Source: a virus. From it: a stretch of 29,234 nucleotides of DNA. Position numbers and translations under genes: made by a program. The notes beneath the pieces are model-generated. The model saw only the letters and a list, made by a program, of their open reading frames with translations, was not told the origin of the DNA and made no database searches. The stretch spans positions 1 to 29,234 of IMG/VR virus record IMGVR_UViG_3300028284_000023; one strand, 5' to 3'. This document shows, one piece after another, positions 1,635 to 28,548 of this stretch; position 1 is the stretch's first letter; each line of letters opens with the position of its first letter.

Positions 1635-1665
1635 AGGGTTATCTTAACGGATAGCCCTTTTTTTA
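1635..1665 (+). terminator. Rho-independent terminator
   Basis: Stem agggttatc/gatagccct (one G-U pair), 6-nt loop, then T7. Confidence 0.75.
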
Positions 1666-1696
1666 TACCTACACAATACAAAATATTTGTTTTTTA

Positions 1697-1709
1697 TTTA
1701 TATATTAAT
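1697..1709 (+). promoter_or_regulatory. Conserved ATG-abutting motif TTTATATATTAAT (copy 1 of 5)
   Basis: Identical 13-mer plus ATG at 19358-19373. Close variants lie at 15972, 26886 and 28536, all ending exactly at the start codon. Confidence 0.5.
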
Positions 1710-2060
1710 ATGAAGTTAATTAACACAAGCGGAAACAAAACCTTTAAGATAATTCCAAGAGAATTTACAGTAGGCACATTAAACCTAAAATTGACTAGTG
1801 AAAGTACAAACAAAACTATTACGGTTGATGCTACTTCGGTTATTGATGGGAACTATATTTCTTTTGATGCTGTTTTTGGTGCTTTAACTGAAAGCGATTT
1901 TTATATATTAGACGTTGTTTATTCAAACAATATAATTTATAAGGATAAGATTTTTTGCACAGACCAAGCAATAAACCAAAGTAATGATGAATATTATAGC
2001 GTCAATAAAGATAAGTATATAAGTGAAGAAAGTTCGGATAACGAATTTATAATAATATAA
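1710..2060 (+). CDS. Hypothetical protein (probably structural)
   Basis: 116 aa ORF in the morphogenesis block, preceded by the conserved motif. Confidence 0.6.
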   Translation: MKLINTSGNKTFKIIPREFTVGTLNLKLTSESTNKTITVDATSVIDGNYISFDAVFGALTESDFYILDVVYSNNIIYKDKIFCTDQAINQSNDEYYSVNKDKYISEESSDNEFIII

Positions 2061-2062
2061 AT

Positions 2063-3880
2063 ATGAACGATTTAAGAATAGTAAATTTAAGTACTTACAC
2101 AACTCCAGAAATTGTTGAGAAATCAAACAAAGAATGGGTTAGTTATGGTTCTGATAACAATTATTTTAAGTATTTAATTGACCGCTATAATGGTAGTCCA
2201 ACAAATAACGCTATTATTAACGGTATTAGTGAAATGATTTACGGACGTGGACTAGATGCATTAAACTCAAATAAGAAGCCAGAGCAGTACGCTAAAATGA
2301 TTTCTTTGTTTCATAAAGATATGGTTCGTAAATTATGCTATGACCTTAAACTTATGGGTCAGTGCGCTATGCAAGTCATTTACTCTAAGGATAAAAAAAC
2401 TATTGCACAAGTTGAGCATATACCTGTTGAAAACTTAAGAGCAGAAAAATGTAATGACAAAGGCGAGATAGAAGCTTATTATTATGCTGATGATTGGAAG
2501 AAGGTTAAAAATGTAGGTCACACAACTAGAATACCATCTTTTGGAAGTAGTTCTGAAAACATAGAGATTATTTATGTAAAGCCGTATCGTGCTGGTTATA
2601 AGTACTATAGCAGTCCAGATTATGCTGGAGGACTTCAATATGCTGAGCTCGAACAGGAAATCTCGAACTATCATTTAAACAATATCCTGAACGGATTAGC
2701 TCCTTCAATGTTAATAAATTTTAACAATGGTACACCAAACGCTGAAGAACGCCAAGCCCTAGAAAACCGTATATATTCTAAATTTTCTGGGAGTAGCAAT
2801 GCTGGTAAGTTCATTTTAGCATTTAATGACAATCCAGAAAGTGCAGCAACGATTGAGCCAATACAATTAAGTGAAGCACATCAACAATATCAATTTTTAA
2901 GTGATGAAAGTTCTAAAAAAGTAATGGTTGCTCATAGGGTTGTTAGTCCTATGCTTTTAGGTATTAAAGATAATAGCGGACTTGGTAATAATGCACAAGA
3001 ATTAATTACAGCTAGCACCTTAATGGATAACACCGTTATAAGACCATTTCAGATGCTCTTAATAGATGCTTTTGATTCTATACTAGCATTTAATCAAATG
3101 AGCCTTAAACTGTACTTTAAAACGCTTCAACCGTTAGAATTTACAGACTTAGAAAACGTTGAGGACGCTGAAACAAGAGAAGAAGAAACAGGGGTTAAAC
3201 TTAGCCAAGAATTACCAGATGAATTGGGAAGTGATATTGCTGATGAATTAATTCACTTAGGAGAGAGCGAAGAAGAACTACTAGCTGAATATGATTTAGT
3301 AGATGAAAGCGAAGTTGATTATGAACTAAATGACGAACTAGATGAGGTTATAACAGACTTAAACACTGAACCAGAAGAAGATGAAACAACGTTGTCTAAA
3401 ATATGGAATTTTGTAAGTACTGGAACGGCTAAACCAAACGCAAAAAGTACACAAGATGGCAAATCAAAACAAGATAGTCAAAAAGGTGTACAGTTCTTAG
3501 TACGTTATTCTTATGCACCTGAAAAAGCTGGGTCAAACAGCAGACAGTTTTGTTCTAAAATGATAGGAGCTAAAAAAGTTTACCGCAAAGAGGATATTGT
3601 ATCAATGGGCAAAAAGTCTGTAAACGCTGGTTTTGGCAAAGGTGGCTCAGATACATACTCTATATGGTTATATAAAGGCGGTGCTAGATGCAATCATAAG
3701 TGGTTCAGAAAGACCTATCAAATTAAAGAAGGTGAAAAAAGCCAAATAACAAGCGGTCAAGCTAAAAGTAAAGGTTTTAAAATGCCTAAGAACGCACAGA
3801 AAGTACCAGTAGCACCAAAGGATATGAAGTATAAAGGTTATACTGCTGAATATTGGAACAAAATGAAATTCAAAAACTAA
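2063..3880 (+). CDS. Portal protein fused to a C-terminal MuF/SPP1-gp7-like minor head domain
   Basis: 605 aa. The N-terminal ~370 aa is portal-like by size and context. An acidic linker (EDAETREEE...EPEEDE) follows, then a basic C-terminus with SRQFC...GGARCNHKW, which resembles the Cys/His motif of Phage_Mu_F. Confidence 0.6.
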   Translation: MNDLRIVNLSTYTTPEIVEKSNKEWVSYGSDNNYFKYLIDRYNGSPTNNAIINGISEMIYGRGLDALNSNKKPEQYAKMISLFHKDMVRKLCYDLKLMGQCAMQVIYSKDKKTIAQVEHIPVENLRAEKCNDKGEIEAYYYADDWKKVKNVGHTTRIPSFGSSSENIEIIYVKPYRAGYKYYSSPDYAGGLQYAELEQEISNYHLNNILNGLAPSMLINFNNGTPNAEERQALENRIYSKFSGSSNAGKFILAFNDNPESAATIEPIQLSEAHQQYQFLSDESSKKVMVAHRVVSPMLLGIKDNSGLGNNAQELITASTLMDNTVIRPFQMLLIDAFDSILAFNQMSLKLYFKTLQPLEFTDLENVEDAETREEETGVKLSQELPDELGSDIADELIHLGESEEELLAEYDLVDESEVDYELNDELDEVITDLNTEPEEDETTLSKIWNFVSTGTAKPNAKSTQDGKSKQDSQKGVQFLVRYSYAPEKAGSNSRQFCSKMIGAKKVYRKEDIVSMGKKSVNAGFGKGGSDTYSIWLYKGGARCNHKWFRKTYQIKEGEKSQITSGQAKSKGFKMPKNAQKVPVAPKDMKYKGYTAEYWNKMKFKN

Positions 3881-4381
3881 ATGGCAACAGCATTATTTAT
3901 ATCAAGAACTGACTTAGTAAGAAATTCTATCTTAGATGGGAATGTTGATACTGATAAGTTTATACAGTTTATAAAACTAGGTCAAGAAATTGACATACAA
4001 AACTTACTAGGAACTGATTTATACAACCGAATAAGTACGGATATTGAAAACAGTACTTTATCTGGGGACTATTTAGCACTTGTAAGTGATTATATACAGC
4101 CAACCCTTATATGGTTCGCTCAGGTTAATTATATTCCATTTGCGGCATATCAAATTAAGAATGGCGGAGTGTTTAAGCATTCAAGCGAAACCGCTGAAAA
4201 CGTTAATAAAAATGAAGTTGATTATTTAGTCGGTAAAGCTAGAGAATACGCTCGTTATTATTCGACTAGATTAGTTGATTACCTTTGCGATAATAGTTCA
4301 AAATTTCCTGAATATACAAGCAACTCAGGTTCGGATATAAGTCCAGACTCAGACACAGTTTATAACAGCTGGGTTTTATGA
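3881..4381 (+). CDS. Putative head-tail connector/adaptor protein
   Basis: 166 aa ORF immediately after the portal gene. The function comes from position only. Confidence 0.3.
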   Translation: MATALFISRTDLVRNSILDGNVDTDKFIQFIKLGQEIDIQNLLGTDLYNRISTDIENSTLSGDYLALVSDYIQPTLIWFAQVNYIPFAAYQIKNGGVFKHSSETAENVNKNEVDYLVGKAREYARYYSTRLVDYLCDNSSKFPEYTSNSGSDISPDSDTVYNSWVL

Positions 4382-4500
4382 AGTACAAAGTCAAAGAAAT
4401 AAACGTTAAGCGTTTAAAAAAATATATAGGACTTAAAGCAAACGAAGAATACGCTAAACAGTTTTATAATGAAATGAAATTGAAATACAAAAATAAATGA
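4378..4500 (+). CDS. Small basic hypothetical protein (40 aa), not in the ORF track
   Basis: Hand translation: MKYKVKEINVKRLKKYIGLKANEEYAKQFYNEMKLKYKNK. It has ATGA overlaps with both neighbours (4378-4381 and 4497-4500). Confidence 0.5.
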   Translation: MKYKVKEINVKRLKKYIGLKANEEYAKQFYNEMKLKYKNK

Positions 4501-4949
4501 TTTCTACAAATAACCTTATAAGAGCGAAGTCAGTAGAATACACAAGCAGAGGTTTAACGACTGAAAAAATAAGCGTTACTTGGCGGCATTATATCAGTGG
4601 TGTTAATACCTACACGCTTTTTGATACTGGTTCTAGTACAACGTTTCCATTTGCTTATGGTGGTATTCCAGTTCCCTTTAATGGTTATTTTAGTCAATTT
4701 CAAATATCGTCAATGCCTTACAGTTCTAGGCAGTTTCCTAGTGGAAGCTCTTTGACTTTAAGTGTTTATGTAGATGGTGTTTTAAAAGGTAGTGAAACAG
4801 GTACTTATGGAAACAACGTAAGGGAATCAGTTGTTTTAGATTTTGGAAGGTCAATAGAAATAAATAGAGGCGAAACAGTAACGTTAAGGCTACAAGTGAA
4901 CGGTCAATGGTGGTACTGTGGTACTACTTCAATAATAATAGAAAGATAA
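4497..4949 (+). CDS. Hypothetical virion protein
   Basis: 150 aa ORF, translationally coupled on both sides. Confidence 0.6.
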   Translation: MISTNNLIRAKSVEYTSRGLTTEKISVTWRHYISGVNTYTLFDTGSSTTFPFAYGGIPVPFNGYFSQFQISSMPYSSRQFPSGSSLTLSVYVDGVLKGSETGTYGNNVRESVVLDFGRSIEINRGETVTLRLQVNGQWWYCGTTSIIIER

Positions 4950-6193
4950 TGGAAAACCCAATACTAGCATTAATACCTAGCGGATATAAAAACGGCAAAG
5001 TTTACTCTGTTTTACCAGTTGATGGTGATGGAGATTTTGATTTTTTTAGGTTTGGCGATGCAACTAGAGTAAAAGAAAACGGTTTAATTGAAACAATTGT
5101 AGGCTCAAATAACCCTCGCTTGAATTGGAGTGGTGATTGCCCTAGCCTTTTAATGGAAGGAAGTAGAACAAACAGGCAATTAAGAAGCGAAGAATTTAAC
5201 AATGCTTTATGGCTAAAAACAAGAACAACTGTAACGGCACAAGAAGCCCTTTCACCAGAAGGAACTGAAACCGCTGACAAATTAGAATGTAATTCGTCTA
5301 GCGTTCTTGGAATGAGAGTTAGGGGGTCTGCTTCAATTACAAGCGGTTCAACTATTGTTTTATCAGTTTTTGCTAAAAGAGGAAATGCTACATATTGCAA
5401 CTTAGCTTTGTTTAATGACGCTACCACAGATTATTCAAGTATATTTTTTGATTTAGGAAAAGGAGAATCTTTCACCCCTCAAACAACTGGAAGCGAAATA
5501 ACGTTAATAGATAACAGTATTGAATCTTTTACAAATGGGTGGTATAGAATATCCATCACTTGTGAAACTTCTGGAAACACAACTGTAAGACCTTATATTT
5601 ACGGAACAACATCAAATGGAAATCTTACTGTCACTAAAGGCGATTATAATTATTTCTGGGGAGCACAACTTGAAGAAGGTAACTATTTAAGCAGCTACAT
5701 TAAAACGGAAGGAAGTACCGTTACAAGAGCGTTGGAGCGTAAGGTTAAAGCTGAAACAGATTTTAACAAAAATAAAGGAGTAGTTTTTTTAGACGTTAAA
5801 CCTTTTGCGGTTGCTTCTAGTGATACACTTGGTAACGTAATAAATTTACGAGGTGGTACATTTAATTTAATACAATTCGCGTTTAAAACCTCAAACGTTT
5901 TACAGTTTTTTATAAATGAGTTTCCTAGTTCTCCAATAGTTAATTATAATTTTACGCACAATGGCGGAAGGCTTAAAGTAGCGGTTAAATGGGATAGTGG
6001 AAGCTATAAGCTTTTTGCGAACGGACAACTTTTAAATAGTTATTTAGACACAAATAGATTATTTAGTTCATTAAACATATTTCAATTTCAAGGGAATGAT
6101 GACTACTTAAATTTTGAAGGAGAGATTTACAATTCACAAGTTTTTGGGAACGCATTAACAGATGCGGAAATTATAACACTAACAACATTATGA
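4949..6193 (+). CDS. Putative tail fibre / receptor-binding protein with lectin (LamG/concanavalin-like) domains
   Basis: The C-terminus GEIYNSQVFGNALTDAEIITL looks like a LamG-type ending. The internal motif WGAQLEEGNYLSSYIKTEGSTVTR is common in phage fibre proteins. I placed the start at the TAATG-coupled ATG 4949 rather than 4907. Confidence 0.45.
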   Translation: MENPILALIPSGYKNGKVYSVLPVDGDGDFDFFRFGDATRVKENGLIETIVGSNNPRLNWSGDCPSLLMEGSRTNRQLRSEEFNNALWLKTRTTVTAQEALSPEGTETADKLECNSSSVLGMRVRGSASITSGSTIVLSVFAKRGNATYCNLALFNDATTDYSSIFFDLGKGESFTPQTTGSEITLIDNSIESFTNGWYRISITCETSGNTTVRPYIYGTTSNGNLTVTKGDYNYFWGAQLEEGNYLSSYIKTEGSTVTRALERKVKAETDFNKNKGVVFLDVKPFAVASSDTLGNVINLRGGTFNLIQFAFKTSNVLQFFINEFPSSPIVNYNFTHNGGRLKVAVKWDSGSYKLFANGQLLNSYLDTNRLFSSLNIFQFQGNDDYLNFEGEIYNSQVFGNALTDAEIITLTTL

Positions 6194-6498
6194 GAATAGG
6201 CAAATACGAGTTTAAAAGTAAAGAGCAAGTTCAAGATAAGATTGAAGATTTACCAGAAGGTAGTTTTTTAATAGTTGAACTAGGGCATATAGTTTTAAAG
6301 GAAGGCGAATACGAATTAAACGAAGATGAAGAAATGCAGTTAATTAAAGAACCTGTATTTAGTGACAAGTATCACGTTGATGTTATCTGGTACGATATAG
6401 AAAGTCACCCATACGGTTGGAAAACTTACAGTTGTGACTTGGATAGCGAAGGAATGCACAAATTTTCTGGCATTCCGTATTTAGAAAACAAAATATAA
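6190..6498 (+). CDS. Hypothetical protein
   Basis: 102 aa ORF with an ATGA overlap upstream and a TAATG overlap downstream. Confidence 0.6.
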   Translation: MRIGKYEFKSKEQVQDKIEDLPEGSFLIVELGHIVLKEGEYELNEDEEMQLIKEPVFSDKYHVDVIWYDIESHPYGWKTYSCDLDSEGMHKFSGIPYLENKI

Positions 6499-6656
6499 TG
6501 ACATTACAAGATTTGAAAATAGGCTTTTTAAACGCTATCACTTTAGGGGTTAGCTTTACACATATAGAAAATAGTTTAAAGGTTATATTGCTATTATTGT
6601 CAATAGGATATACAGCACAAAAGATATACGAAACGCATAAGAAAAAGAATGACTAA
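6498..6656 (+). CDS. Putative holin (52 aa), not in the ORF track
   Basis: Hand translation: MTLQDLKIGFLNAITLGVSFTHIENSLKVILLLLSIGYTAQKIYETHKKKND. It has two hydrophobic segments and a charged C-terminal tail. It overlaps the start of the endolysin gene. Confidence 0.55.
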   Translation: MTLQDLKIGFLNAITLGVSFTHIENSLKVILLLLSIGYTAQKIYETHKKKND

Positions 6657-7032
6657 AAACTTTAAAAAAAGTGAGTTTGATTGCAAATGTGGTTGTGAAA
6701 TGCCTAGCGATGTTTTGGTTAATATTACCAAACTAGCAAATCAATTACAGTATGTTAGGGACAACGTAGCAATGCCTATAACGATTAATAGTGCTTATAG
6801 ATGTGAAGCACATAATAGTTCAGATGCAGTTAAAGGGTCAAAAAACTCTCAACACTTACTAGGTAAAGCTGCTGATATAGTTATTCAAGGACTTGACCCA
6901 GTTTTAGATACTTACGACTATTTAGAAGAACTGATTTTATCTGGGGAAATACTTCAAGGCGGCTTAGGTATGTACCAAACCTTTACACATTACGATATTA
7001 GAAAAACTAAAGCACGTTGGAACAATGCCTAA
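6649..7032 (+). CDS. Endolysin, peptidase M15A-like (zinc D-Ala-D-Ala carboxypeptidase fold)
   Basis: Motifs SAYRCEAHN, SQHLLGKAADI and FTHYD match the M15 H-x6-D...H zinc site. Confidence 0.8.
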   Translation: MTKNFKKSEFDCKCGCEMPSDVLVNITKLANQLQYVRDNVAMPITINSAYRCEAHNSSDAVKGSKNSQHLLGKAADIVIQGLDPVLDTYDYLEELILSGEILQGGLGMYQTFTHYDIRKTKARWNNA

Positions 7033-7504
7033 ATACAAAGAACAAAACGGAACTACAAGAGTAGGCGATGCACTACGTTGGTTATTAAAACAAGGTAAAG
7101 AAGTAGCACCAGAACTTTTAAAAATAGCGTCTAACGTCACAGGGATTGAAGCCTTAGAATTATTAGCAAATAAAATCGGAGCTGATACCGTTTTAAGTGA
7201 AACAGATAAACAACTTTTATTAGAAGAACTAAACTTTGATAAAATAGAAATGCAAGAAACCACAAAACGATGGGTTTCAGATAACAATACAGACAGTTAT
7301 TTAACACGCAATATAAGACCTTTAACACTAGCTTTTTTAACCGCTACGCTATTTATATACATAATATTAGATAGTTCTTTAGATGGCTTTAAAATATCTT
7401 CTGATTGGATTGATTTACTTAGTTCTTTATTGCTTTTGGTTTATGGCGGTTATTTTGGTATGCGTTCAGCAGAGAAAATAACAAAGCATTGGAAAAATAA
7501 ATAA
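7025..7504 (+). CDS. Membrane protein of the lysis cassette (possible second holin or lysis accessory)
   Basis: 159 aa. The C-terminal half has two hydrophobic helices (LTLAFLTATLFIYIIL and LLSSLLLLVYGGYFGM). It overlaps the endolysin stop. Confidence 0.35.
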   Translation: MPKYKEQNGTTRVGDALRWLLKQGKEVAPELLKIASNVTGIEALELLANKIGADTVLSETDKQLLLEELNFDKIEMQETTKRWVSDNNTDSYLTRNIRPLTLAFLTATLFIYIILDSSLDGFKISSDWIDLLSSLLLLVYGGYFGMRSAEKITKHWKNK

Positions 7505-7602
7505 CTTTTTTCTTTTTTAATTAAAATAAAAGATATAACTTTGAATTTTTTGTTAAGCTCATTAATTAGCTAAACGTTTTTGTTGCCCTTAAAGGCATAA
7601 AA

Positions 7603-7652
7603 AAACAAATACCAAAACAAATAGATAAATATAAATCTAAACAAATAGATAA
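7603..7652 (+). repeat. Iterated AAACAAATAGATAA boxes in the 170-bp late/early intergenic region
   Basis: Exact 14-mers at 7615-7628 and 7639-7652, plus a 9-nt partial copy at 7603-7611. The start-to-start spacings are 12 and 24 nt. Confidence 0.6.
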
Positions 7653-7674
7653 GATATCTGGGAACTATTCAAAA

Positions 7675-8070
7675 ATGGCAAAAAGAACACAACGCAAAAA
7701 ACTAGTAGATAAGTTAGATAAGGTTTTTAGTATATATATAAGGCGAAGGTATGCCGATAATGATGTAGCTGAGTGCTTCACTTGTGGTAAACAAGACCAT
7801 TGGAAGAAACTACAAAACGGACACTTTCAAAGCCGTAAACACTATTCTACTAGGTGGCACGAACAGAATTGCCAAGTTCAGTGTGCTGGTTGTAATGTGT
7901 TCAGATACGGAGAACAATATAAATTTTCTAAGAATTTAGATAACACTTATTATAGTGGTTTAGCAGAAGAACTACATATAGAAGCAAATAAAACAGTTAA
8001 ACTAGATAACACAGATTTAGAAATGTTAATAGAAAAATATGAATTGTTAATTAAACAACTAGATACTTAA
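7675..8070 (+). CDS. ninG: NinG-like recombination protein
   Basis: FSIYIRRR...CFTCGK...NGHFQSRKHYSTRW...QCAGCNVFRYG matches the lambda NinG Cys/His pattern. Confidence 0.75.
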   Translation: MAKRTQRKKLVDKLDKVFSIYIRRRYADNDVAECFTCGKQDHWKKLQNGHFQSRKHYSTRWHEQNCQVQCAGCNVFRYGEQYKFSKNLDNTYYSGLAEELHIEANKTVKLDNTDLEMLIEKYELLIKQLDT

Positions 8071-8238: not shown

Positions 8239-8439
8239 ATGAATTTATTTGAAAGATTAAAACCAGAGTACAAAGACAACCTAGAAACAGGAAATGTTAA
8301 GCATCCAGCTTTAGTTGGATATGCAGTTGACCAATTAGAGCTTTACGAATTTGTTAGAGATATGCCTTATGGTTTGGTAACAGACTTAAGATTTTTATTA
8401 GACGTAGATAGTCCTTACGAATTATTTAAAGAGATTTAA
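8239..8439 (+). CDS. Hypothetical protein
   Basis: 66 aa ORF, first gene after the promoter. Confidence 0.6.
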   Translation: MNLFERLKPEYKDNLETGNVKHPALVGYAVDQLELYEFVRDMPYGLVTDLRFLLDVDSPYELFKEI

Positions 8440-8440
8440 T

Positions 8441-8575
8441 ATGACTTATTCAGAAGATGTAAACAGAGCAGCCTCAACCGATACAATAGACTTTTTAAAT
8501 GCACGTGTAGATGCTTTACAGAAGCGAGTGGAATTTTTAGAAGCACAAATAGAAATTAATAACAAAAACAAATAA
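8441..8575 (+). CDS. Small hypothetical coiled-coil protein (44 aa), not in the ORF track
   Basis: Hand translation: MTYSEDVNRAASTDTIDFLNARVDALQKRVEFLEAQIEINNKNK. It exactly fills the gap between flanking genes. Confidence 0.5.
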   Translation: MTYSEDVNRAASTDTIDFLNARVDALQKRVEFLEAQIEINNKNK

Positions 8576-8576
8576 T

Positions 8577-8960
8577 ATGAACAAGGAAAAATTAACAGAG
8601 TTATACAAAGAGTATAAACTTGAAAAAGAAGATGTATTTAAACATCAACATTATTTAATCATAACCAGAAGCGGAATCGACAAGATTCAAGCCGTAGCCA
8701 AAATTCAAATAAGTTATGAAGTAGTAAGGTGCGAACCAAACTTTGCGGTATTTAAAGCCGTAGCACATAAAGGAGCTGCAACGATTGAAACCTTTGGCAG
8801 TGCCTTAAAAGGTGATAGCTATAAAGACAGTTCAACAAATAGTTGGTACGTTGCTGAGATGGCAGAGAAGCGAGCAATGTCAAGAGCCGTTTTAAAATTA
8901 ACCGGTTTTTACGAATTGGGAGTGTTCGGAGAGGACGAATCAGAATCATTTAAAAAATAA
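8577..8960 (+). CDS. Hypothetical protein; possible single-strand annealing / recombination mediator
   Basis: 127 aa. The helix AEMAEKRAMSRAVLKLTG loosely recalls the KRA-containing helix of Rad52-like SSAPs. It sits directly upstream of the SSB-like gene. This is a weak call. Confidence 0.25.
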   Translation: MNKEKLTELYKEYKLEKEDVFKHQHYLIITRSGIDKIQAVAKIQISYEVVRCEPNFAVFKAVAHKGAATIETFGSALKGDSYKDSSTNSWYVAEMAEKRAMSRAVLKLTGFYELGVFGEDESESFKK

Positions 8961-8984
8961 ATAACAATTAAATTAAATTAAATT

Positions 8985-9284
8985 ATGGGAGCAATTATCA
9001 ACTATTCACTAAGAGTGGACAAATTACCAAAGGAGAAATTCATCGCTGGAAAAGATGGAGCGGTTTATGTAAACCTTACAATGTCAGTAAATGACGAAAC
9101 ACGTTACGGAAATAACGCATCAATTATGATTAGCCAAACACAAGAAGAACGGGAAGCTAAGAAACCAAGAACTTATATTGGGAACGGTCAAGTTGTTTGG
9201 ACTGATGGAAACATCGTAAAGGCTGAACGTGAAGAAGCCAAAGAAGTGGTACAAGAAGCTGAAACAAGCGACTTACCATTTTAA
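8985..9284 (+). CDS. Small SSB-like protein with an acidic C-terminal tip
   Basis: 99 aa ending ...EAETSDLPF. Bacterial and phage SSBs end in an acidic D-(I/L)-P-F protein-interaction tip. Confidence 0.45.
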   Translation: MGAIINYSLRVDKLPKEKFIAGKDGAVYVNLTMSVNDETRYGNNASIMISQTQEEREAKKPRTYIGNGQVVWTDGNIVKAEREEAKEVVQEAETSDLPF

Positions 9285-9292
9285 CAAACTAG

Positions 9293-9317
9293 GGCGGTGT
9301 AATAACCGCCTTTTTTA
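9293..9317 (+). terminator. Rho-independent terminator
   Basis: Stem ggcggt/accgcc, 6-nt loop, then T6. Confidence 0.8.
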
Positions 9318-9343
9318 TTACCTTTACAAAACAATACAAAACA

Positions 9344-10252
9344 ATGAAAGAGATAACAGAAGAACAAACCACACATAATATGTTGATGGAGTTGATAGCA
9401 GAAGAATGTGCTATTGATACATCAGAGGTTATGGAGTACCCACCAACGGCTTTAAGTCTGGGTGAAAAAACCATACAAGCGAAAGGTGGTGATATTACAA
9501 TGCCCATCCCTATTGGAACGTATGGGAATTTTAGCTTCGTACAAGCACCCCCAAAGAGCAAGAAAACCTTCTTTGTATCTTTACTAGCTTCTGTTTATTT
9601 AAGCGGTGGCAATAACTTTGGTGGTAAAATTAAAGGACATCGTGAAGGTAGGTGCTTAATGCACTTTGATACAGAACAAGGACACTGGCACGCTCAACGA
9701 GTTTTTAAGCGTGTTCAGGATATGTCAAACACTAAAGAGATAGGTTGTTATCATACGTATGCACTTAGAACAATAGGATACAAGGAACGGATACAATTTA
9801 TAGAACACTGTTTAGAGCAAAACAAAGGTAAAAATGGTTTAGTTATTATTGATGGTATTGCTGATTTAGTTAGTGACGTTAATAATTTAGAAGAATCAAA
9901 TTTATGTGTTCAGAAAATAATGCAGCTATCTGCAAAATACGATTGCCATATAGTAACGGTTATACATAGTAATTACGGAAGCGACAAACCAACAGGACAT
10001 TTAGGCTCGTTCCTTGAAAAAAAGACAGAAAACCAAATACAACTTGAAATAAACACAGTAAATAAAGAATGGATAACAGTAAGCTGCAAACGTTCTAGGG
10101 GTTACGCTTTTGATACGTTTAGCTTTAGTATTAATGAGTTTGGATTGCCTTTTGTGGTTGGCGAAATATACGACCCATTAGAATACTTTGTACCTAGAAC
10201 ATTAACGCCTAATAAACCAAACGAACAAGTTAGGGCGAATTTTAATAATTAA
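9344..10252 (+). CDS. RecA-like/AAA_25 NTPase, putative replicative helicase
   Basis: Walker A-like APPKSKKT and Walker B-like LVIIDGIADL. The size and context fit a DnaB-C-terminal or RepA-like helicase. Confidence 0.5.
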   Translation: MKEITEEQTTHNMLMELIAEECAIDTSEVMEYPPTALSLGEKTIQAKGGDITMPIPIGTYGNFSFVQAPPKSKKTFFVSLLASVYLSGGNNFGGKIKGHREGRCLMHFDTEQGHWHAQRVFKRVQDMSNTKEIGCYHTYALRTIGYKERIQFIEHCLEQNKGKNGLVIIDGIADLVSDVNNLEESNLCVQKIMQLSAKYDCHIVTVIHSNYGSDKPTGHLGSFLEKKTENQIQLEINTVNKEWITVSCKRSRGYAFDTFSFSINEFGLPFVVGEIYDPLEYFVPRTLTPNKPNEQVRANFNN

Positions 10253-10256
10253 ATAA

Positions 10257-10748
10257 ATGAAATCAATTTTAGAACTAGCTTACAAAAAGCATAGTGATTG
10301 GAATAACATAGTAAAAAGTTTCGGCTGCAACCCATCAATGAGCGAGGACGTAGTTATGGAAATGTATATACAGCTTGATGCTGATGTAAAAAAAGGTTTA
10401 GACCTTTACTATAAAGACCAGATAAATCATTACTACTGCTATAAAGTTCTAAGAGGTATTTACACAAATTTATATAAGTCAAGCCTAAGACAAAAGAAAG
10501 TTTATTTAGAAGATATAAACGAACTTAAAGAAATACAAGAAAGTGGTATTGATGAAAAAGAATGGGCGAAGCAGCGTAACCATATCGATAGCATATTAAA
10601 CGAAATGTATTGGTACGATAAAAAAATATTTGAGATAGTCGCAAAGGGTGTAAGCGTTGCAGAGTTAAGCAGAAACACTAAAATAAGTTATTATTCACTT
10701 TACAATACATATACAAACGCAAAGAAACATATAAAAAACAAGTTATGA
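10257..10748 (+). CDS. ECF-like sigma factor / HTH transcription regulator
   Basis: Region-2-like SEDVVMEMYIQL...YKVLRGIYTNLYKSSLRQKK. Region-4-like YDKKIFEIVAKGVSVAELSRNTKISYYSLYNTYTNAKKHI. Confidence 0.4.
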   Translation: MKSILELAYKKHSDWNNIVKSFGCNPSMSEDVVMEMYIQLDADVKKGLDLYYKDQINHYYCYKVLRGIYTNLYKSSLRQKKVYLEDINELKEIQESGIDEKEWAKQRNHIDSILNEMYWYDKKIFEIVAKGVSVAELSRNTKISYYSLYNTYTNAKKHIKNKL

Positions 10749-10879
10749 GATTGGGAGATTTATTTTATTACATTACTTATTACACTGGCATTCATTGGCT
10801 AGTTAAAAAAATATGGGGTGACGATTGCGGTTGCGACCAAAGGCGTGATGATTGGAACGATATAAATATAGACTTATGA
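10745..10879 (+). CDS. Small hypothetical protein (44 aa), not in the ORF track
   Basis: Hand translation: MRLGDLFYYITYYTGIHWLVKKIWGDDCGCDQRRDDWNDINIDL. It has ATGA overlaps at both ends. Confidence 0.5.
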   Translation: MRLGDLFYYITYYTGIHWLVKKIWGDDCGCDQRRDDWNDINIDL

Positions 10880-11076
10880 GAATAGAAGACCAAGACGCTT
10901 GGGTGGACTTTAAAGCAAATGTAACCACAAAGCTATCAAAAGAACAGTACAGGCTACTCTGTACGCTCCACGCTCGTTACTTAAACCACACCTACTATGA
11001 GCCTTGCAGTTGTAAACCTAAAATTCTAGTAATGTGGATAAAAGATTTAGATAACATATATAACAAAATTAAATGA
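10876..11076 (+). CDS. Hypothetical protein
   Basis: In frame with track ORF 10852-11076. I chose the ATGA-coupled ATG at 10876 over the TTG at 10852. Confidence 0.6.
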   Translation: MRIEDQDAWVDFKANVTTKLSKEQYRLLCTLHARYLNHTYYEPCSCKPKILVMWIKDLDNIYNKIK

Positions 11077-11543
11077 TTGAGAAAATACATAACTGGGAAA
11101 AAGCCGTTGTAACGCTTTTAAATTTAGATGGGTGGAACTTAACCCATACAGGGAAAGGGAATGAAAGCTGGGACGCCACAGGCACAACGCCAAAGGGTCA
11201 AGAATGTGTTATAGAAATGAAGTTTAGAAATAAATACTATGACACGAAAATACTTGAGAAGTTTAAACACGACAAACTGATTGAAACAGGCAAGGTTGCT
11301 TTATACCTAGTGAACGACCCTAAAGGCAATTATATGTTCTGGCTTAATAATTTAGAGGGTTTAAAGACTAAAGATATATACTGTCCTGATACAACGCTTT
11401 GGACTAAGAAAAAGGTTTTAAAGCCTTGTTATCTGTTGGAAGAACAAGACGCTGCAATAATTAACTTAAATGAAGAACTAGAAATTGGTATATGGGATAG
11501 CTATTTCCAGATAAAAGAAAAAATAAATAAAAAAAATAGTTAA
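11073..11543 (+). CDS. Putative PD-(D/E)xK-fold nuclease
   Basis: WDATG...VIEMKFR gives a D...E-x-K arrangement typical of restriction-endonuclease-like or resolvase folds. This is a weak call. Confidence 0.3.
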   Translation: MIEKIHNWEKAVVTLLNLDGWNLTHTGKGNESWDATGTTPKGQECVIEMKFRNKYYDTKILEKFKHDKLIETGKVALYLVNDPKGNYMFWLNNLEGLKTKDIYCPDTTLWTKKKVLKPCYLLEEQDAAIINLNEELEIGIWDSYFQIKEKINKKNS

Positions 11544-11546
11544 TTA

Positions 11547-11578
11547 TTTGTTTATAACTAAATAAAGTTTTATATTTG
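11547..11578 (+). promoter_or_regulatory. Bacteroidota-type promoter (TTTG, 20-nt gap, TATATTTG)
   Basis: TTTG at 11547-11550 and TAnnTTTG at 11571-11578. The -7 box ends 24 nt before ATG 11603. Confidence 0.6.
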
Positions 11579-11602
11579 TACCAACAATAACAAATAAACA
11601 AT

Positions 11603-11848
11603 ATGAAGCCATCAGAAATAAATATTAACCTAATAGGGAAAAAAGTAAGTTGTGTTAATTTAGGTGAAACAGTAACTGGAGTTATAACAGATATTTATGA
11701 AGATGCTGAGCATATAGGTGTAAGAATTAAACACGAACCTATCCAATGGGGTGCAGATGTATTTACTAATTTATTATCTACTGCTTGTAAAGGTACTGAT
11801 TTAATGCCACCTACTGAGGGTAATTTAAAGTTAACAAAATTAATATAA
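11603..11848 (+). CDS. Hypothetical protein
   Basis: 81 aa ORF after the promoter. Confidence 0.6.
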   Translation: MKPSEININLIGKKVSCVNLGETVTGVITDIYEDAEHIGVRIKHEPIQWGADVFTNLLSTACKGTDLMPPTEGNLKLTKLI

Positions 11849-11859
11849 AAACAAACATT

Positions 11860-12051
11860 ATGAAAACGAAATACAGTAACTTACACGACATTAACACATT
11901 TATGAGTACAAAAGATAACGAAACTTATTTTAGTGGAATGGACGAATATGGTGAACCTAAAACAATAGTATTTAACACTATTGAATTATTAGAATGGTTA
12001 GATATTGACCATATGAAAAACCAAACAATTGAATATATTAAAAGCATATAA
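11860..12051 (+). CDS. Hypothetical protein
   Basis: 63 aa ORF in a tightly spaced array. Confidence 0.55.
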   Translation: MKTKYSNLHDINTFMSTKDNETYFSGMDEYGEPKTIVFNTIELLEWLDIDHMKNQTIEYIKSI

Positions 12052-12053
12052 TT

Positions 12054-12242
12054 ATGAAAAAGACAAAAACAGGACTACACATTGAAACTAGAAAGAACCG
12101 CATAGAGGTTTACACTAAAAAGGATTTACAGCAAAGAGATGAAGAACTAAACGAACAGCGTGAGTTGATTATAATGGCTTCTGCTGTAGCTTCAGCGATT
12201 TTATTAGTTACTTTAGGGTTTATCTTTGGTTTATCAGTGTAA
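12054..12242 (+). CDS. Hypothetical tail-anchored membrane protein
   Basis: 62 aa with the C-terminal hydrophobic helix IIMASAVASAILLVTLGFIFGL. Confidence 0.55.
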   Translation: MKKTKTGLHIETRKNRIEVYTKKDLQQRDEELNEQRELIIMASAVASAILLVTLGFIFGLSV

Positions 12243-12517
12243 TGACGCTACTACAAAAACAGTCATATAATCTTTGGTTTAATCACATAGCGGATAAGGT
12301 TATGGAATGGAGCAAACAAAAACCAGCCAATAAAGAGCTAAGAAACTTTATAAAGGGAATGACCGAGATAGGTCAATACGTAAACGCTTTAAACGTAGAA
12401 AACAGCGTACTAACAAAACGCATAGGAATTATACGAGAAGAAAAAAACAAGCAGCTTATAGGCTTGAATAAGCAAATAGAAGATTTAGAAAACAAATTAA
12501 AACAATACGAAATATGA
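12242..12517 (+). CDS. Hypothetical protein
   Basis: 91 aa ORF with a TAATG overlap upstream and an ATGA overlap downstream. Confidence 0.6.
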   Translation: MTLLQKQSYNLWFNHIADKVMEWSKQKPANKELRNFIKGMTEIGQYVNALNVENSVLTKRIGIIREEKNKQLIGLNKQIEDLENKLKQYEI

Positions 12518-12636
12518 ATTACTTTGACAGTTATATAGATGAACCAGACGCAAAGACAGAATGTGCTTGTTGTGGTTCTGAAACAAATGGCGATTATTAT
12601 TGCTCAGTTCAATGCTTTAATTTAGATATAGAATGA
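12514..12636 (+). CDS. Small Cys-rich (zinc-ribbon-like) protein (40 aa), not in the ORF track
   Basis: Hand translation: MNYFDSYIDEPDAKTECACCGSETNGDYYCSVQCFNLDIE. It has ATGA overlaps at both ends. Confidence 0.5.
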   Translation: MNYFDSYIDEPDAKTECACCGSETNGDYYCSVQCFNLDIE

Positions 12637-13349
12637 TACTACTAGTAGATGCAGATAGTTTAATCTTCGCTTCTTGTTATAAGAAACGAGAGAACCCAGA
12701 AGATGACAAATACTATCGAGATATAGAAGATGCCCAAGCTAAGTTTGATGAGCAATTTATGAGCATAGTAAACAAGCTTGAAGATATGTATCCGATAGAA
12801 GAAGTACTAACGTTTAGCGGTAGTAAGGGAAATTTTAGAAAGCTCATTACAAGCGACTACAAAGCCAATAGAAAAAAGCAAGAGTTACCGCCTTTATTAA
12901 ATGAAATGCACCAATTCGTTAAAGACCAATACGACAGCATCTGGGGTTATGGAATTGAAACTGATGATATGGTGGCTAGATATTGGCACGAACTGTCTAA
13001 CGACTTAGGACGTGATAATGTTATGATAGTAAGTATTGACAAGGACTATAAGCAATTTCCTTGCCTTATGTACAACTATCACTATAAACACAAAGAAGTT
13101 TTAGATATAAGCGAGGACGAAGCCTTATACAACTTTTATGAGCAAATGATAATTGGTGACACAGCTGATAACGTAAACTATTTTAAAGGTAAAGGAAAAA
13201 AGTTTGCAGAAAAATATTTAGCTGAATGCGATACAAAATATCAATACACAAAAAAGATGTACGAATTATTTAAACAAGAATACAAAGGCAAAGCACGTCA
13301 GAAGTATGCAGAGTGCTATCACTTATTAAAACTTAGAACAAATGATTAG
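12633..13349 (+). CDS. 5'-3' exonuclease / flap endonuclease (PIN-like FEN family)
   Basis: Motifs LLVDADSLIF, IETDDMVA, VSIDKDYKQ and GDTADNV parallel the conserved acidic FEN motifs DGxxL, EADD, GDKDxxQ and GDxSDNI. Confidence 0.7.
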   Translation: MILLVDADSLIFASCYKKRENPEDDKYYRDIEDAQAKFDEQFMSIVNKLEDMYPIEEVLTFSGSKGNFRKLITSDYKANRKKQELPPLLNEMHQFVKDQYDSIWGYGIETDDMVARYWHELSNDLGRDNVMIVSIDKDYKQFPCLMYNYHYKHKEVLDISEDEALYNFYEQMIIGDTADNVNYFKGKGKKFAEKYLAECDTKYQYTKKMYELFKQEYKGKARQKYAECYHLLKLRTND

Positions 13350-13464
13350 ATTTGTATATGACCTAGATATAGTTATTGAAGCAATGGAGAACCAAGACTA
13401 TGAAGATGCTTTAAAAATGATTAAAGACATACAAGAAGATTTAAGAATATTAGCATTATTATAA
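13342..13464 (+). CDS. Small hypothetical protein (40 aa), not in the ORF track
   Basis: Hand translation: MIRFVYDLDIVIEAMENQDYEDALKMIKDIQEDLRILALL. It overlaps the FEN gene stop by 8 nt. Confidence 0.4.
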   Translation: MIRFVYDLDIVIEAMENQDYEDALKMIKDIQEDLRILALL

Positions 13465-13476
13465 AACAAAAACAAA

Positions 13477-13992
13477 ATGACAGCAAAAACATTAAGTAGA
13501 TTAGGAATAGAAGTATGGAAGGACATACCTACATTTAAAAGTTATGAAGTTAGTAATTTAGGGAATGTTAGAAGTTTAAAGTTTAACAAGTTTAAAGTTT
13601 TAAAAAAAAGCATAAATAAAAGAGGTAGGTATAGAGTTAATCTTTGTGAAAATGGAAGAAAATTTACAAATTGTAAAATAAGTCAATTATCTGCAATGGC
13701 TTTTTTAAATCATAAACCTTGTGGACATAAAATAGTTGTTGACCACATAAACAACGACAAAGAAAATGATAAGTTATATAATTTACAATTAATTTCAAAC
13801 AGAGAAAACACTGTAAAAGACACAAAGCGAGGTTCGTCAAAATACGTGGGAGTTTCTTGGCATAAAAATCAAAGTAAGTGGAGAACCAATATATACATAA
13901 ATGGTAAAATAAAACATCTCGGATATTTCACAGACGAAAAAGAAGCAGCACAAGCATATCAAAACGAATTAAATAAAATAAAAACAAAATGA
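13477..13992 (+). CDS. HNH homing endonuclease (NUMOD4 + HNH_3 + AP2 DNA-binding domain)
   Basis: EVWKDIPTFKSYEVSNLGNVRS (NUMOD4), VVDHINNDKENDKLYNLQLISNRENT (HNH) and YVGVSWHKNQSKWRTNIYINGKIKHLGYFTDEKEAAQAY (AP2). Confidence 0.75.
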   Translation: MTAKTLSRLGIEVWKDIPTFKSYEVSNLGNVRSLKFNKFKVLKKSINKRGRYRVNLCENGRKFTNCKISQLSAMAFLNHKPCGHKIVVDHINNDKENDKLYNLQLISNRENTVKDTKRGSSKYVGVSWHKNQSKWRTNIYINGKIKHLGYFTDEKEAAQAYQNELNKIKTK

Positions 13993-14462
13993 GTAATTTT
14001 AACAGAAACGAAGTAACAGCATATAACTTAGGTTATAGAGTAAAAGAGAACGGTCAATTAATAGGTTTAAAGGGTAAACCAATAGGATGTGTGTCTAATG
14101 GTTATTATAAGATTAAAATAAGAAATAATGGCGGTTGGATAAACTGCTTAACCCACAGGCTTCAAGCATATCAAAAATACGGAAATGATATATATAAAAC
14201 TGGGATTGTATGCAGACACTTGAACGGCAACAGCTTAGACAATTCTAGGGATAACATAGCAATAGGCACTCAATCTGATAATATGATGGATATGAAGCCA
14301 GAAGTAAGAAAAGCAAAGGGTAGATATGCTTCTTCTTTTGCACAAATACACGACCACGACAAAATAATATTATTTTACAAACAGAGAAAATCATATAAAA
14401 AAACAATGGAAAAATTTAACATTTCAAGCAAAGGAACGTTACATTACATATTAAATAAATAA
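13989..14462 (+). CDS. Second HNH endonuclease (HNH_3-like) with a C-terminal HTH
   Basis: THRLQAYQKYG...VCRHLNGNSLDNSRDNIAIGTQSDN. It has an ATGA overlap with the preceding HNH gene. Confidence 0.6.
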   Translation: MSNFNRNEVTAYNLGYRVKENGQLIGLKGKPIGCVSNGYYKIKIRNNGGWINCLTHRLQAYQKYGNDIYKTGIVCRHLNGNSLDNSRDNIAIGTQSDNMMDMKPEVRKAKGRYASSFAQIHDHDKIILFYKQRKSYKKTMEKFNISSKGTLHYILNK

Positions 14463-14466
14463 AACT

Positions 14467-14694
14467 ATGAGAGCAACTTATTTACATTACGAGAACGGAA
14501 AAGGCTATGACGTTATAGACTTTATAAAAGATTATGAGCTAAACTTCAATAGGGGAAATATAATTAAGTATATTTGCAGAAGCGGAAAAAAAGACGATGA
14601 GTTAAAAGACTTAGAAAAAGCAGCAGATTATTTAAGACGTGAAATAGAATACCTAAGAGAGCAGCAACAACAATGGATAGAAAAAAACAAATGA
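14467..14694 (+). CDS. DUF3310-family protein
   Basis: YDVIDFIKDYELNFNRGNIIKYICRSGKK...DLEKAADYL matches the DUF3310 pattern from memory. Confidence 0.55.
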   Translation: MRATYLHYENGKGYDVIDFIKDYELNFNRGNIIKYICRSGKKDDELKDLEKAADYLRREIEYLREQQQQWIEKNK

Positions 14695-15131
14695 GAAAAG
14701 AACAAAAAGAATACTACGAAAGAATGGAACAAAAAGAACTAGAACACCAAGAACAAGTTAGAGGGGTACAAGATGACCCAATAACACACAGGCACCTAAG
14801 CTATTTAAAATGCGTATTGATAAGTCAATTACTACTAGAAGCAAACGATGACTTAAAAGGAAGCGTAGGGTTTAAGCAGAACGTAAAGCTGCAAGTAAAT
14901 AAGACATCAAAACTACTGGAAGGAATATATCAAGAAGGGTTTAATAATGTGTACAATAACAACCCTGAAATGTGTACCAATGTACTAAACAAAATAGACA
15001 GCTTAATGCATAAAATAAAAGTAGCCACTATTGATGAACTAGTAATGATTGACGCACTAGTTGATAACTACTTCCAAAACAAAGAAGAACACAATAAAAA
15101 CCAAACAGCAGAATTCACTAAACTAGATTAA
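14691..15131 (+). CDS. Hypothetical protein
   Basis: Same frame as the track ORF from 14673. I preferred the ATGA-coupled ATG at 14691. Confidence 0.6.
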   Translation: MRKEQKEYYERMEQKELEHQEQVRGVQDDPITHRHLSYLKCVLISQLLLEANDDLKGSVGFKQNVKLQVNKTSKLLEGIYQEGFNNVYNNNPEMCTNVLNKIDSLMHKIKVATIDELVMIDALVDNYFQNKEEHNKNQTAEFTKLD

Positions 15132-15132
15132 T

Positions 15133-15267
15133 ATGTATATAAATATAGAAATAAAAGACACAGACCGTAAAGACTATTATAAATTCCTTATAAACGGATT
15201 AGACTTAGGAACTTGGGAACGCTCAGACCTTAGACACTTAATAGAAACAATAGACAATAAAATATAG
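15133..15267 (+). CDS. Small hypothetical protein (44 aa), not in the ORF track
   Basis: Hand translation: MYINIEIKDTDRKDYYKFLINGLDLGTWERSDLRHLIETIDNKI. It starts 2 nt after the upstream stop. Confidence 0.45.
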   Translation: MYINIEIKDTDRKDYYKFLINGLDLGTWERSDLRHLIETIDNKI

Positions 15268-15272
15268 ACAAA

Positions 15273-15419: not shown

Positions 15420-15428
15420 AATAAAACA

Positions 15429-15950: not shown

Positions 15951-15971
15951 TAGCAAAATAATCTATAAAAA

Positions 15972-15984
15972 TTTATATATAAGT
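15972..15984 (+). promoter_or_regulatory. Conserved ATG-abutting motif TTTATATATAAGT (copy 2 of 5)
   Basis: It ends exactly at ATG 15985. See the other copies at 1697, 19358, 26886 and 28536. Confidence 0.5.
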
Positions 15985-18857: not shown

Positions 18858-18887
18858 TTTGTTAATACAAAAAAATTCTTATCTTTG
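18858..18887 (+). promoter_or_regulatory. Bacteroidota-type promoter (TTTG, 18-nt gap, TATCTTTG)
   Basis: TTTG at 18858-18861 and TAnnTTTG at 18880-18887. The -7 box ends 23 nt before ATG 18911. Confidence 0.55.
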
Positions 18888-19276: not shown

Positions 19277-19297
19277 TAAAATAAACCATCAATATAG

Positions 19298-19324
19298 CCC
19301 TTACAGAAATGTAGGGGTTTTTTT
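19298..19324 (+). terminator. Rho-independent terminator
   Basis: 8-bp stem cccttaca/tgtagggg (one G-U pair), GAAA tetraloop, then T7. Confidence 0.8.
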
Positions 19325-19357
19325 GTATCTTATAGTTACTAAAATAAATTAAAAAAG

Positions 19358-19370
19358 TTTATATATTAAT
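19358..19370 (+). promoter_or_regulatory. Conserved ATG-abutting motif TTTATATATTAAT (copy 3 of 5)
   Basis: Identical to 1697-1709 and ends exactly at ATG 19371. Confidence 0.5.
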
Positions 19371-26863: not shown

Positions 26864-26885
26864 AAAACAAAAATAAATAAATTTA

Positions 26886-26898
26886 ATTATATATTATT
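26886..26898 (+). promoter_or_regulatory. Conserved ATG-abutting motif ATTATATATTATT (copy 4 of 5)
   Basis: Ends exactly at ATG 26899. Confidence 0.45.
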
Positions 26899-28509: not shown

Positions 28510-28535
28510 CGAAAATACAAATTAAATTAATCTAA

Positions 28536-28548
28536 ATTATATATAAGT
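28536..28548 (+). promoter_or_regulatory. Conserved ATG-abutting motif ATTATATATAAGT (copy 5 of 5)
   Basis: Ends exactly at ATG 28549. Confidence 0.45.

Follow-up and report, generated by a model that had tools for sequence, protein, structure and literature searches.

Bipartite elements abutting the start codons of five late genes: probable late promoters of a marine flavobacterial phage, with a predicted ECF-like sigma factor as their candidate reader

Results

A 13-nt motif abuts the start codons of five genes

The 29,234-nt viral sequence IMGVR_UViG_3300028284_000023 from IMG/VR (here called the window, meaning this whole stretch of DNA) carries five copies of a 13-nt motif with the consensus WTTATATATWADT. 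As a preliminary description of the sequence had reported, each copy is followed immediately by the ATG of a gene (genes 1710, 15985, 19371, 26899 and 28549, named by their first base). That description gave the motif in its title as the 14-letter IUPAC string WTTATATATWAWKT, which has no match in the window and was a typing error for the real 13-nt motif. Because the first and last 127 bases of the window are identical (1-127 and 29108-29234), we conclude that it represents a complete phage genome, assembled as a circle or with terminal redundancy, whose unit length is 29,107 bp. All genes of the window lie on one strand.

Alignment of the five sites on the ATG revealed a second conserved box, overlooked in the preliminary description. 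This CAAAATAA-like box (C-A-A-A-a-t-a-a) lies at -31 to -24 from the A of the ATG; TTATATAT occupies -12 to -5 and is followed by W-A-D-T (WADT). The spacer between the two boxes is constant in length and variable in sequence among the five sites. The boxes form a bipartite element, of which the 13-nt motif makes up the downstream half. The sites have the general features of sigma-dependent promoters, with two boxes at a fixed spacing, strand specificity and a position upstream of transcription units, and we refer to them as candidate late promoters 1 to 5.

1678..1709, + strand, candidate late promoter 1: upstream box CAAAATAT at 1679-1686; motif copy TTTATATATTAAT at 1697-1709; gene start 1710; predicted +1 at the A of the ATG, 1710
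15953..15984, + strand, candidate late promoter 2: upstream box CAAAATAA at 15954-15961; motif copy TTTATATATAAGT at 15972-15984; gene start 15985
19339..19370, + strand, candidate late promoter 3: upstream box TAAAATAA at 19340-19347; motif copy TTTATATATTAAT at 19358-19370; gene start 19371, heading the tail unit 19371-26863
26867..26898, + strand, candidate late promoter 4: upstream box CAAAAATA at 26868-26875; motif copy ATTATATATTATT at 26886-26898; gene start 26899
28517..28548, + strand, candidate late promoter 5: upstream box CAAATTAA at 28518-28525; motif copy ATTATATATAAGT at 28536-28548; gene start 28549

In a shuffle-controlled scan of the window, TTATATATNNNNATG was found five times where 0.11 +/- 0.35 copies were expected, and none of 100 dinucleotide shuffles reached five, which excludes a chance origin of the motif. 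The regular expression [AT]TTATATAT[AT]A[ATG]T matched five times on the plus strand and never on the minus strand. Scored with a 33-nt position weight matrix (PWM; -33 to -1), the five sites reached 24-29 bits and the next best position on either strand 11.5-13 bits; when each site was left out in turn, it ranked fifth among 58,404 positions, right behind the four training sites. Extra copies of TTATATAT, three on the plus strand (1901, 19255 and 22222) and five on the minus strand, have no matching upstream box or ATG 3' of them and score at most 13 bits. A generic scan of the window for sigma70 TTGACA/TATAAT promoters, irrelevant for this host type, gave no enrichment (69 found versus 85 expected), and Rfam and tRNA scans returned no match at or near the five sites.

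The five sites head the structural and packaging units

The placement of the motif agrees with the preliminary description, which had assigned it to true intergenic gaps at the heads of late or packaging operons. All five sites are intergenic (gaps of 97, 34, 94, 35 and 39 nt), the three short gaps of 34-39 nt hardly exceeding the 32-nt candidate promoter itself, and the five units together contain every structural and packaging gene. Late promoter 1 heads the unit 1710-8070, which encodes a 116-aa protein, the portal (2063), a tail-fibre-like protein (4907) and further products. Late promoter 2 heads the packaging unit 15985-18818 with ParB-like (15985), DpdA/queuine-transferase-like (16548) and TerL (17655) genes, and its upstream box immediately follows the stop codon of gene 15429-15950. 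The tail unit behind late promoter 3 includes the large tail proteins (22207 and 24980), and late promoter 4, which almost fills its 35-nt gap, heads the unit 26899-28509 with an S78-type prohead protease (26899) and two small genes. Late promoter 5 heads a scaffold-like gene (28549-29166) and then, across the circular junction, the capsid-like gene 81-1016, which ends at a terminator at 1036-1062; the unit extends from 28549 across the junction to 1016/1612. Two of the five sites stand 38 nt after strong terminator-like hairpins, again as described before:

1635..1658, + strand, intrinsic-terminator-like hairpin with T-run, closing the capsid unit just 5' of late promoter 1
19296..19319, + strand, intrinsic-terminator-like hairpin with T-run, just 5' of late promoter 3

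The early genes carry host-type promoters and A-rich start contexts

The early/replication region (8239-15950) encodes an AAA ATPase (9344), a 5'-3' exonuclease (12633), HNH endonucleases (13477 and 13989) and a DnaA-C-like helix-turn-helix (HTH) protein (15429). In contrast to the late units, early genes 8239 and 11603 and the moron-like gene 18911 are preceded by host-type TTTG...TAnnTTTG elements, with leaders of about 20-25 nt, which bears out the distinction made in the preliminary description. In Bacteroidota sigmaA promoters TTTG lies at -33 and the -7 element TAnnTTTG 4-5 nt ahead of the transcription start site (TSS); this geometry was applied to these promoters after PMC6847099.

8180..8213, + strand, host-type (Bacteroidota sigmaA-like) promoter: TTTG-N22-TATATTTG before early gene 8239; leader about 20 nt
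11547..11578, + strand, host-type promoter: TTTG-N20-TATATTTG before gene 11603
18858..18887, + strand, host-type promoter: TTTG-N18-TATCTTTG before moron-like gene 18911-19276

Within the five motif sites, the TAnnTTTG element that marks Bacteroidota sigmaA promoters is absent from the plus strand. The start contexts also differ: a Shine-Dalgarno-like 4-mer precedes only 1 of 44 genes, and the 39 genes without the motif are A-rich upstream (A at -13 in 29, at -3 in 29 and at -1 in 26 of the 39), the opposite of the T-rich motif with its T at -12, -11, -9, -7, -5 and -1.

The bipartite element is kept in relatives at variable distance from the start codon

Megablast of the window against cultured phages gave no match. 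The nearest cultured phages are Nonlabens (Persicivirga) P12024S/L, with a portal identity of 37%, and IMG/VR holds hundreds of related contigs. We surveyed 241 related loci together with the window, counting distinct contexts of bipartite instances that scored at least 15 bits and taking as the gap the distance between the end of the motif and the ATG of the nearest downstream open reading frame (ORF) with 50 codons or more. Orthologues of the sites at 1710, 26899, 28549 and 19371 retain the two boxes at the same spacing, while the coding sequence 5' of them, the bases of the spacer and the protein encoded 3' of them (identity down to 40-60%) have diverged. Late promoter 1 is kept in about 70 related loci, with downstream proteins down to 40-54% identity, and the hairpin at 1635-1658 is kept with compensatory variants. 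Late promoter 4 is likewise kept, as is late promoter 5 despite differing upstream coding sequence. Late promoter 3 lies 0, 7 or 12 nt from the ATG in relatives; homologues of gene 19371 with 66-76% identity carry TTTATATATTAAT followed by AAGTACAACAAT and then the ATG.

The survey yielded 163 distinct bipartite instances on the gene strand and 0 on the opposite strand, with the following gaps:

gap 0 nt: 108 distinct contexts
gap 1-6 nt: 0 distinct contexts
gap 7 nt: 1 distinct context
gap 12 nt: 8 distinct contexts
gap 14 nt: 2 distinct contexts
gap 20-29 nt: 34 distinct contexts
gap 35-41 nt: 7 distinct contexts
no ORF of at least 50 codons found: 3 distinct contexts

Because in relatives 7-41 nt can separate an intact copy of the element from the ATG (52 of the 163 instances), it behaves as an autonomous candidate promoter, able to work at a distance from the ATG, and not as a start-codon context or ribosome-binding site (RBS). 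The leadered copies retain TTATATATtA.t, so the A at motif position -3 belongs to the candidate promoter and is not a Kozak-like -3 base. In all leadered examples listed, the base right after the motif is a purine. The gap is strictly bimodal, either 0 or at least 7 nt, and this speaks for a special functional role of the first base after the motif, as would be expected of +1. A search for contigs beginning at the ATG, taken as a proxy for RNA-derived assemblies, gave only one borderline case (L045, starting 2 nt before a scaffold ATG) that is uninformative, since the contig crosses terminators.

The slot between TerL and the tail unit (18819-19370) is variable. In the window it holds gene 18911-19276 behind its host-type promoter, and many relatives (L082, L085, L086, L100 and others; about 1.5 kb 5' of the 19371 homologue) have other small genes there behind the same late promoter, followed by A/T-rich leaders of 20-29 nt. 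Three relatives (L092:4385-4425, L135:3897-3938 and L136:3891-3932) have a leader of 40-41 nt after the late promoter that contains a terminator-like hairpin and T-run (aagggataactatctagctatccttttttaat), which could be an attenuator between promoter and gene.

The -10-like box varies with the clade of a predicted ECF-like sigma factor

The sigma-like protein that the preliminary description had named as candidate reader is encoded in the early/middle region:

10257..10748, + strand, gene for a 163-aa predicted sigma factor of the extracytoplasmic function (ECF) type (sigma2 + sigma4), the proposed reader of the motif

An AlphaFold2 model of this protein, built with 22 homologues in the input, had a predicted local distance difference test (pLDDT) score of 81 and predicts that the ORF folds as an ECF-type sigma. 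Searching PDB with the model by Foldseek, nearly all of the top ~45 matches were ECF sigmas (sigmaH, sigmaE, sigmaL, AlgU, SigW, CnrH, SigK and BldN). For region 2 the match was to 4lup, sigmaE region 2 bound to -10 DNA (75 aligned columns, root-mean-square deviation (rmsd) 3.0 Å), and for region 4 to 2h27, sigmaE region 4 bound to -35 DNA (61 aligned columns, rmsd 1.9 Å). The predicted domain content is sigma2 plus sigma4 only, as in ECF (group 4) sigmas. Several homologues with 60-67% identity are named 'sigma24 family' by the Joint Genome Institute (JGI), and only gp33 of P12024S, a distant homologue, passes the Pfam model Sigma70_r2 (25.2 bits, cutoff 24). Against cultured phages, tblastn found no match with the window protein as query and, with P12024S gp33 as query, matches in two Nonlabens phages only.

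The identity of the sigma homologue to that of the window tracks the -10-like box of the late genes (homologues of the ParB-like gene and of gene 19371), with the box starting at -12 from the ATG:

sigma identity at least 60%: box TTATATAT, as TTATATATwAxT directly followed by ATG
sigma identity 44-48% (L198, L185, L225): box CTATATAC, as CTATATACwwAT directly followed by ATG
sigma identity about 41% (L173, L177, L192, L175, L215, L217): box CGTTATAT, as CGTTATATArrT directly followed by ATG
sigma identity 26% (P12024S): box CGTTAATA, as AAAC-N17-CGTTAATATAnn directly followed by ATG

In addition, L216 (sigma identity 49%) has TTGATATATTAAT directly before the ATG of its ParB-like gene, and the ParB-like homologues of other phage clades carry clade-specific boxes in the same register as late promoter 2. 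In P12024S, AAAC-N17-CGTTAAT abuts the ATG at six late genes, among them the protease gene and the one preceding the portal gene. At a seventh site (21280; gp35, heading a packaging-region block with TerL) the gap is 1 nt shorter. CGTTAMT-N5-ATG occurs at 6 late genes of P12024S versus 0.18 expected. ECF promoters are characterized by AAC at -35, CGT at -10 and a 14-17 bp spacer (PMC5758882), a signature to which the P12024S element conforms, and their -10 element is numbered -12 to -7 relative to the TSS (PMC6372665). The corresponding box of clade C is CGTTATAT.

Other features of the genome

The ParB-N-like gene 15985-16551 lies directly 5' of 16548-17327, a DpdA-like gene matching the PHROG 'queuine tRNA-ribosyltransferase' (E = 2e-57), and the pair suggests a 7-deazaguanine-type DNA modification module inside the late packaging unit. 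The N-terminal half of the protease (26899-27843) and the scaffold-like protein (28549-29166) match the N- and C-terminal parts of a single PHROG (24921, 349 positions). The phage appears to have a split version of a protease-scaffold gene that is fused in other phages, the two parts being separated by two small genes (27836 and 28060) and a late promoter. Gene 19371 has only a weak PHROG 'tail protein' match, and the 3' end of this gene (19371-20015) is overlapped in another frame by a GTG ORF (19823-20101, 92 aa) that reaches gene 20098; the overlap may reflect programmed frameshifting as in tail-assembly chaperones, or the ORF may be spurious. The replication module contains two neighbouring HNH homing-endonuclease-like genes (13477-14462), the first with NUMOD4, HNH_3 and AP2 and the second with HNH_3 and an HTH. 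Within a 297-nt gap at 15132-15428 there are two small ORFs, and no repeats of note.

Discussion

We consider it probable that the five sites are bipartite late promoters that are read by the phage ECF-like sigma and have their TSS on the A of the ATG, so that the first cistrons are leaderless. The interpretation offered in the preliminary description, in which a phage-specific promoter yields leaderless mRNAs and the sigma-like protein is the candidate reader, is the best supported one. The element is bipartite, strand-specific, operon-heading and kept in relatives, and its -10-type box starts 12 nt ahead of the A of the ATG. A -10-like box 6-7 bp before the ORF is an accepted signature of leaderless genes (PMC12340547, PMC3160421); in the window, the hexamer TTATAT (-12 to -7) leaves 6 bp to the ATG, and the same register is found in clades B and C and in P12024S. 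All five sites, and every relative with a gap of 0, use ATG as the start codon. Because the box starts at -12, a pyrimidine stands at -1 and a purine at +1, we infer that transcription starts on the A of the ATG, a geometry that would make the late mRNAs leaderless.

The 13-nt motif would then comprise the -10 element and the discriminator, and the CAAAATAA-like box would act as a -35-type element. Early and middle genes, including the sigma gene, would be transcribed from the host-type TTTG/TAnnTTTG promoters, after which the phage ECF-like sigma would redirect the host core RNA polymerase (RNAP) to the five late promoters and switch on the five late units, to which every structural and packaging gene belongs. 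In each unit, the first cistron would be translated from the 5'-terminal AUG and the downstream cistrons via the usual A-rich contexts. For the scaffold-capsid unit, a promoter of its own and a terminator right 3' of the capsid gene would fit a high copy demand. The predicted ECF-sigma fold and the variation of the -10-like box with the sigma clade make ORF 10257-10748 a suitable candidate for the sigma that presumably reads the motif.

Several points weigh against this interpretation. The evidence that the 163-aa protein is a sigma has limits: the Foldseek E-values are modest (best 8e-4), and the end-to-end alignment with P12024S gp33 is a weak link at 26% identity. Searches of Pfam and PHROG with the protein gave no significant match and neither did a PDB profile search (best sigma 1h3l, E = 0.16), so that by sequence the window protein does not fall into the Sigma70_r2 or Sigma70_r4 families. 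The window sites combine (A/G)CAAAAT with TTATATAT, contain no CGT and have AC in only 4 of 5 cases, and the A-rich upstream box might instead serve as an UP-like element or bind an activator. Shared phylogeny could by itself explain why sigma and box co-vary. In a few clade-C copies (L210:2279, L233:1762 and L239:5991), the CGTTATA box lies 10 nt and not 12 from the ATG (CGTTATATAT or CGTTATACAT directly before ATG), a 2-nt register shift that a strict model with +1 at the A does not explain. Three of the five late promoters have no upstream terminator, and read-through leadered transcripts must co-exist there. Finally, the mRNAs of Flavobacterium johnsoniae are mostly leadered (87% with more than 10 nt; PMC6847099), and efficient leaderless translation in the Flavobacteriia host group is unproven.

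An alternative is that the late promoters are as described but the TSS is variable or lies a few bases 5' of the ATG, giving a very short leader. ECF holoenzymes accept discriminators of 4-7 nt when selecting a TSS (PMC6372665), the clade-C variants have their box 10 nt from the ATG, and A at -3 is also favoured in the start context of other genes. We nevertheless regard a short leader as unlikely, since the absence of gaps of 1-6 nt among 163 contexts is hard to explain unless +1 matters, and the pyrimidine at -1 and purine at +1 fall exactly at the junction of motif and ATG and, in leadered copies, at that of motif and leader. It is more improbable still that a host sigma (sigmaA or an alternative one) reads the late promoters together with a phage activator bound to the A-rich upstream box, the 163-aa protein doing another job. 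The five sites lack the Bacteroidota TAnnTTTG -7 element, the predicted fold matches ECF sigmas in both domains, the box varies with the sigma clade at a fixed register, and the P12024S promoter is ECF-like and its sigma homologue passes Pfam Sigma70_r2. In favour of a host sigma are the lack of canonical ECF AAC/CGT in the window boxes, the lack of a significant match of the 163-aa protein to sigma families, and the presence of a DNA-binding gene (15429-15950, with its DnaA C-terminal-like HTH) just 5' of late promoter 2.

The translation-initiation element that the preliminary description offered as an alternative, whether an RBS or a Kozak-like enhancer on leadered or read-through mRNA, did not hold up, and we now think it very unlikely. 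The motif does touch the start codon, Bacteroidota make no use of Shine-Dalgarno sequences and rely on AU-rich upstream sequence (PMC6847099), and at the three sites without an upstream terminator the motif would sometimes be part of an mRNA. However, the motif is restricted to operon heads and absent from the 39 internal or early genes, which start in an A-rich and not a T-rich context. A second box stands 20 nt upstream at fixed spacing, in relatives the complete element can stand 7-41 nt away from the ATG, and the element is clade-specific, unlike what is expected of ribosome signals. We give least credence to a site for a phage DNA-binding protein without a role in initiation (ParB-like, packaging or replication), or to a chance AT-rich repeat. 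A 10-bp palindrome, TTATATATAA, is present in two copies (15973-15982 and 28537-28546) and the phage has a ParB-like gene, but the strand specificity is strict (163 versus 0), the flanks are asymmetric and the relation to gene starts is fixed; chance is ruled out by the shuffles. The idea of a palindromic ParB site was rejected on account of this strand specificity and of the non-palindromic versions in clade B, clade C and P12024S.

Late promoters that depend on a phage sigma, and the leaderless late mRNAs of Thermus phages, are already known. SPO1 gp28 and gp33/34 are examples of phage-encoded sigmas. Others with their own middle or late promoters are phiEco32 gp36 and that of phage 7-11 (PMC4331800). 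As in these two phages, a small sigma gene lies in the early/middle region of the window, a short phage consensus precedes the structural clusters and host-type promoters precede the early genes. Their consensus is a different one, however, promoter-start codon fusion is not described for them, and no anti-sigma or host-RNAP inhibitor was identified in the window. T4 late mRNAs are leadered and have Shine-Dalgarno sequences. T4 late promoters (TATAAATA at -10; gp55/gp33/gp45; PMC2988020) resemble the window sites in that a TA-rich -10 8-mer marks late genes and the phage sigma is very small and divergent, but they have no -35 element and gp55 lacks sigma4, whereas the window has a conserved upstream box and a predicted sigma4-like domain. 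The T4-type combination of a single -10 element and a sigma without region 4 is therefore not what the window sites present. With ECF (group 4) promoters (PMC5758882, PMC6372665) the system shares a predicted two-domain sigma and a bipartite promoter with a rigid spacer, and P12024S has AAAC-N17-CGTTAAT. In contrast to those systems, AAAAT and TTATATAT replace AAC and CGT in the window clade, and the window has neither an anti-sigma partner nor an autoregulatory promoter at the sigma gene.

For leaderless transcripts, the closest parallel is in the Thermus phages YS40 and Lalka27a, which have a class-specific late -10 element, a TSS 6 bp downstream on the A/G of the start codon and mostly leaderless mRNAs (bioRxiv 10.64898/2026.04.20.719267). 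Both systems have late promoters with a -10 element of their own and a TSS coinciding with the start codon, experimentally there and by prediction here. They differ in that Deinococcus-Thermus hosts are themselves widely leaderless (PMC12340547), whereas the mRNAs of the presumed Flavobacteriia hosts are mostly leadered and A-rich (PMC6847099). Specificity in the Thermus phages is, moreover, thought to be due to a factor that modifies the host holoenzyme; the window has a predicted ECF-like sigma gene of its own together with a -35-type box. The TA-led leaderless genes of bacteria (Zheng et al. 2011, PMC3160421; Zhong et al. 2025, PMC12340547) similarly have a TA-rich -10-like hexamer about 6-7 bp before the AUG. 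Theirs, however, are housekeeping-sigma TANNNT boxes of cellular genes, as opposed to an 8-13-nt phage-specific box that has a second box upstream of it and occurs only at the heads of five late operons. The novel aspect is the combination of an ECF-like phage sigma with a start-codon-locked bipartite promoter in a large marine Flavobacteriia phage group whose host phylum is not prone to leaderless mRNAs. We found no prior description in the literature searched on flavobacterial and Bacteroidota phages, which is not proof of absence.

More tentatively, the same arrangement may extend to a large and globally distributed group of uncultured marine Flavobacteriia siphophages (hundreds of IMG/VR contigs) and to Nonlabens P12024S/L. 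In these phages essentially every late unit might begin with a leaderless gene, served by the promoters of a private, fast-evolving ECF-like sigma, the start codon fixing their register. Such phages would have their own mode of translation initiation, distinct from the leader-dependent, Shine-Dalgarno-less, A-rich initiation of the hosts.

The early host-type promoters, the sigma gene and the five late promoters provide a regulatory map for an abundant group of uncultured marine phages, and the rule of a clade-specific box at -12 from the ATG improves the annotation of gene starts and operons in related contigs. The graded series TTATATAT, CTATATAC, CGTTATAT and CGTTAATA with matching sigma clades is a data set on specificity change in ECF-type sigma2, and such pairs of sigma and promoter are possibly orthogonal tools for Bacteroidota genetics. 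Experiments are feasible because the cultured phage P12024S, which grows on Persicivirga sp. IMCC12024, has the same architecture. If the late mRNAs are leaderless, they would be the first case that we found for Bacteroidota phages, and 70S/leaderless initiation would become directly testable in Bacteroidota, where start-codon choice without Shine-Dalgarno pairing is still being worked out. A phage-specific initiation mode, if it exists, could sustain late protein synthesis independent of host initiation control.

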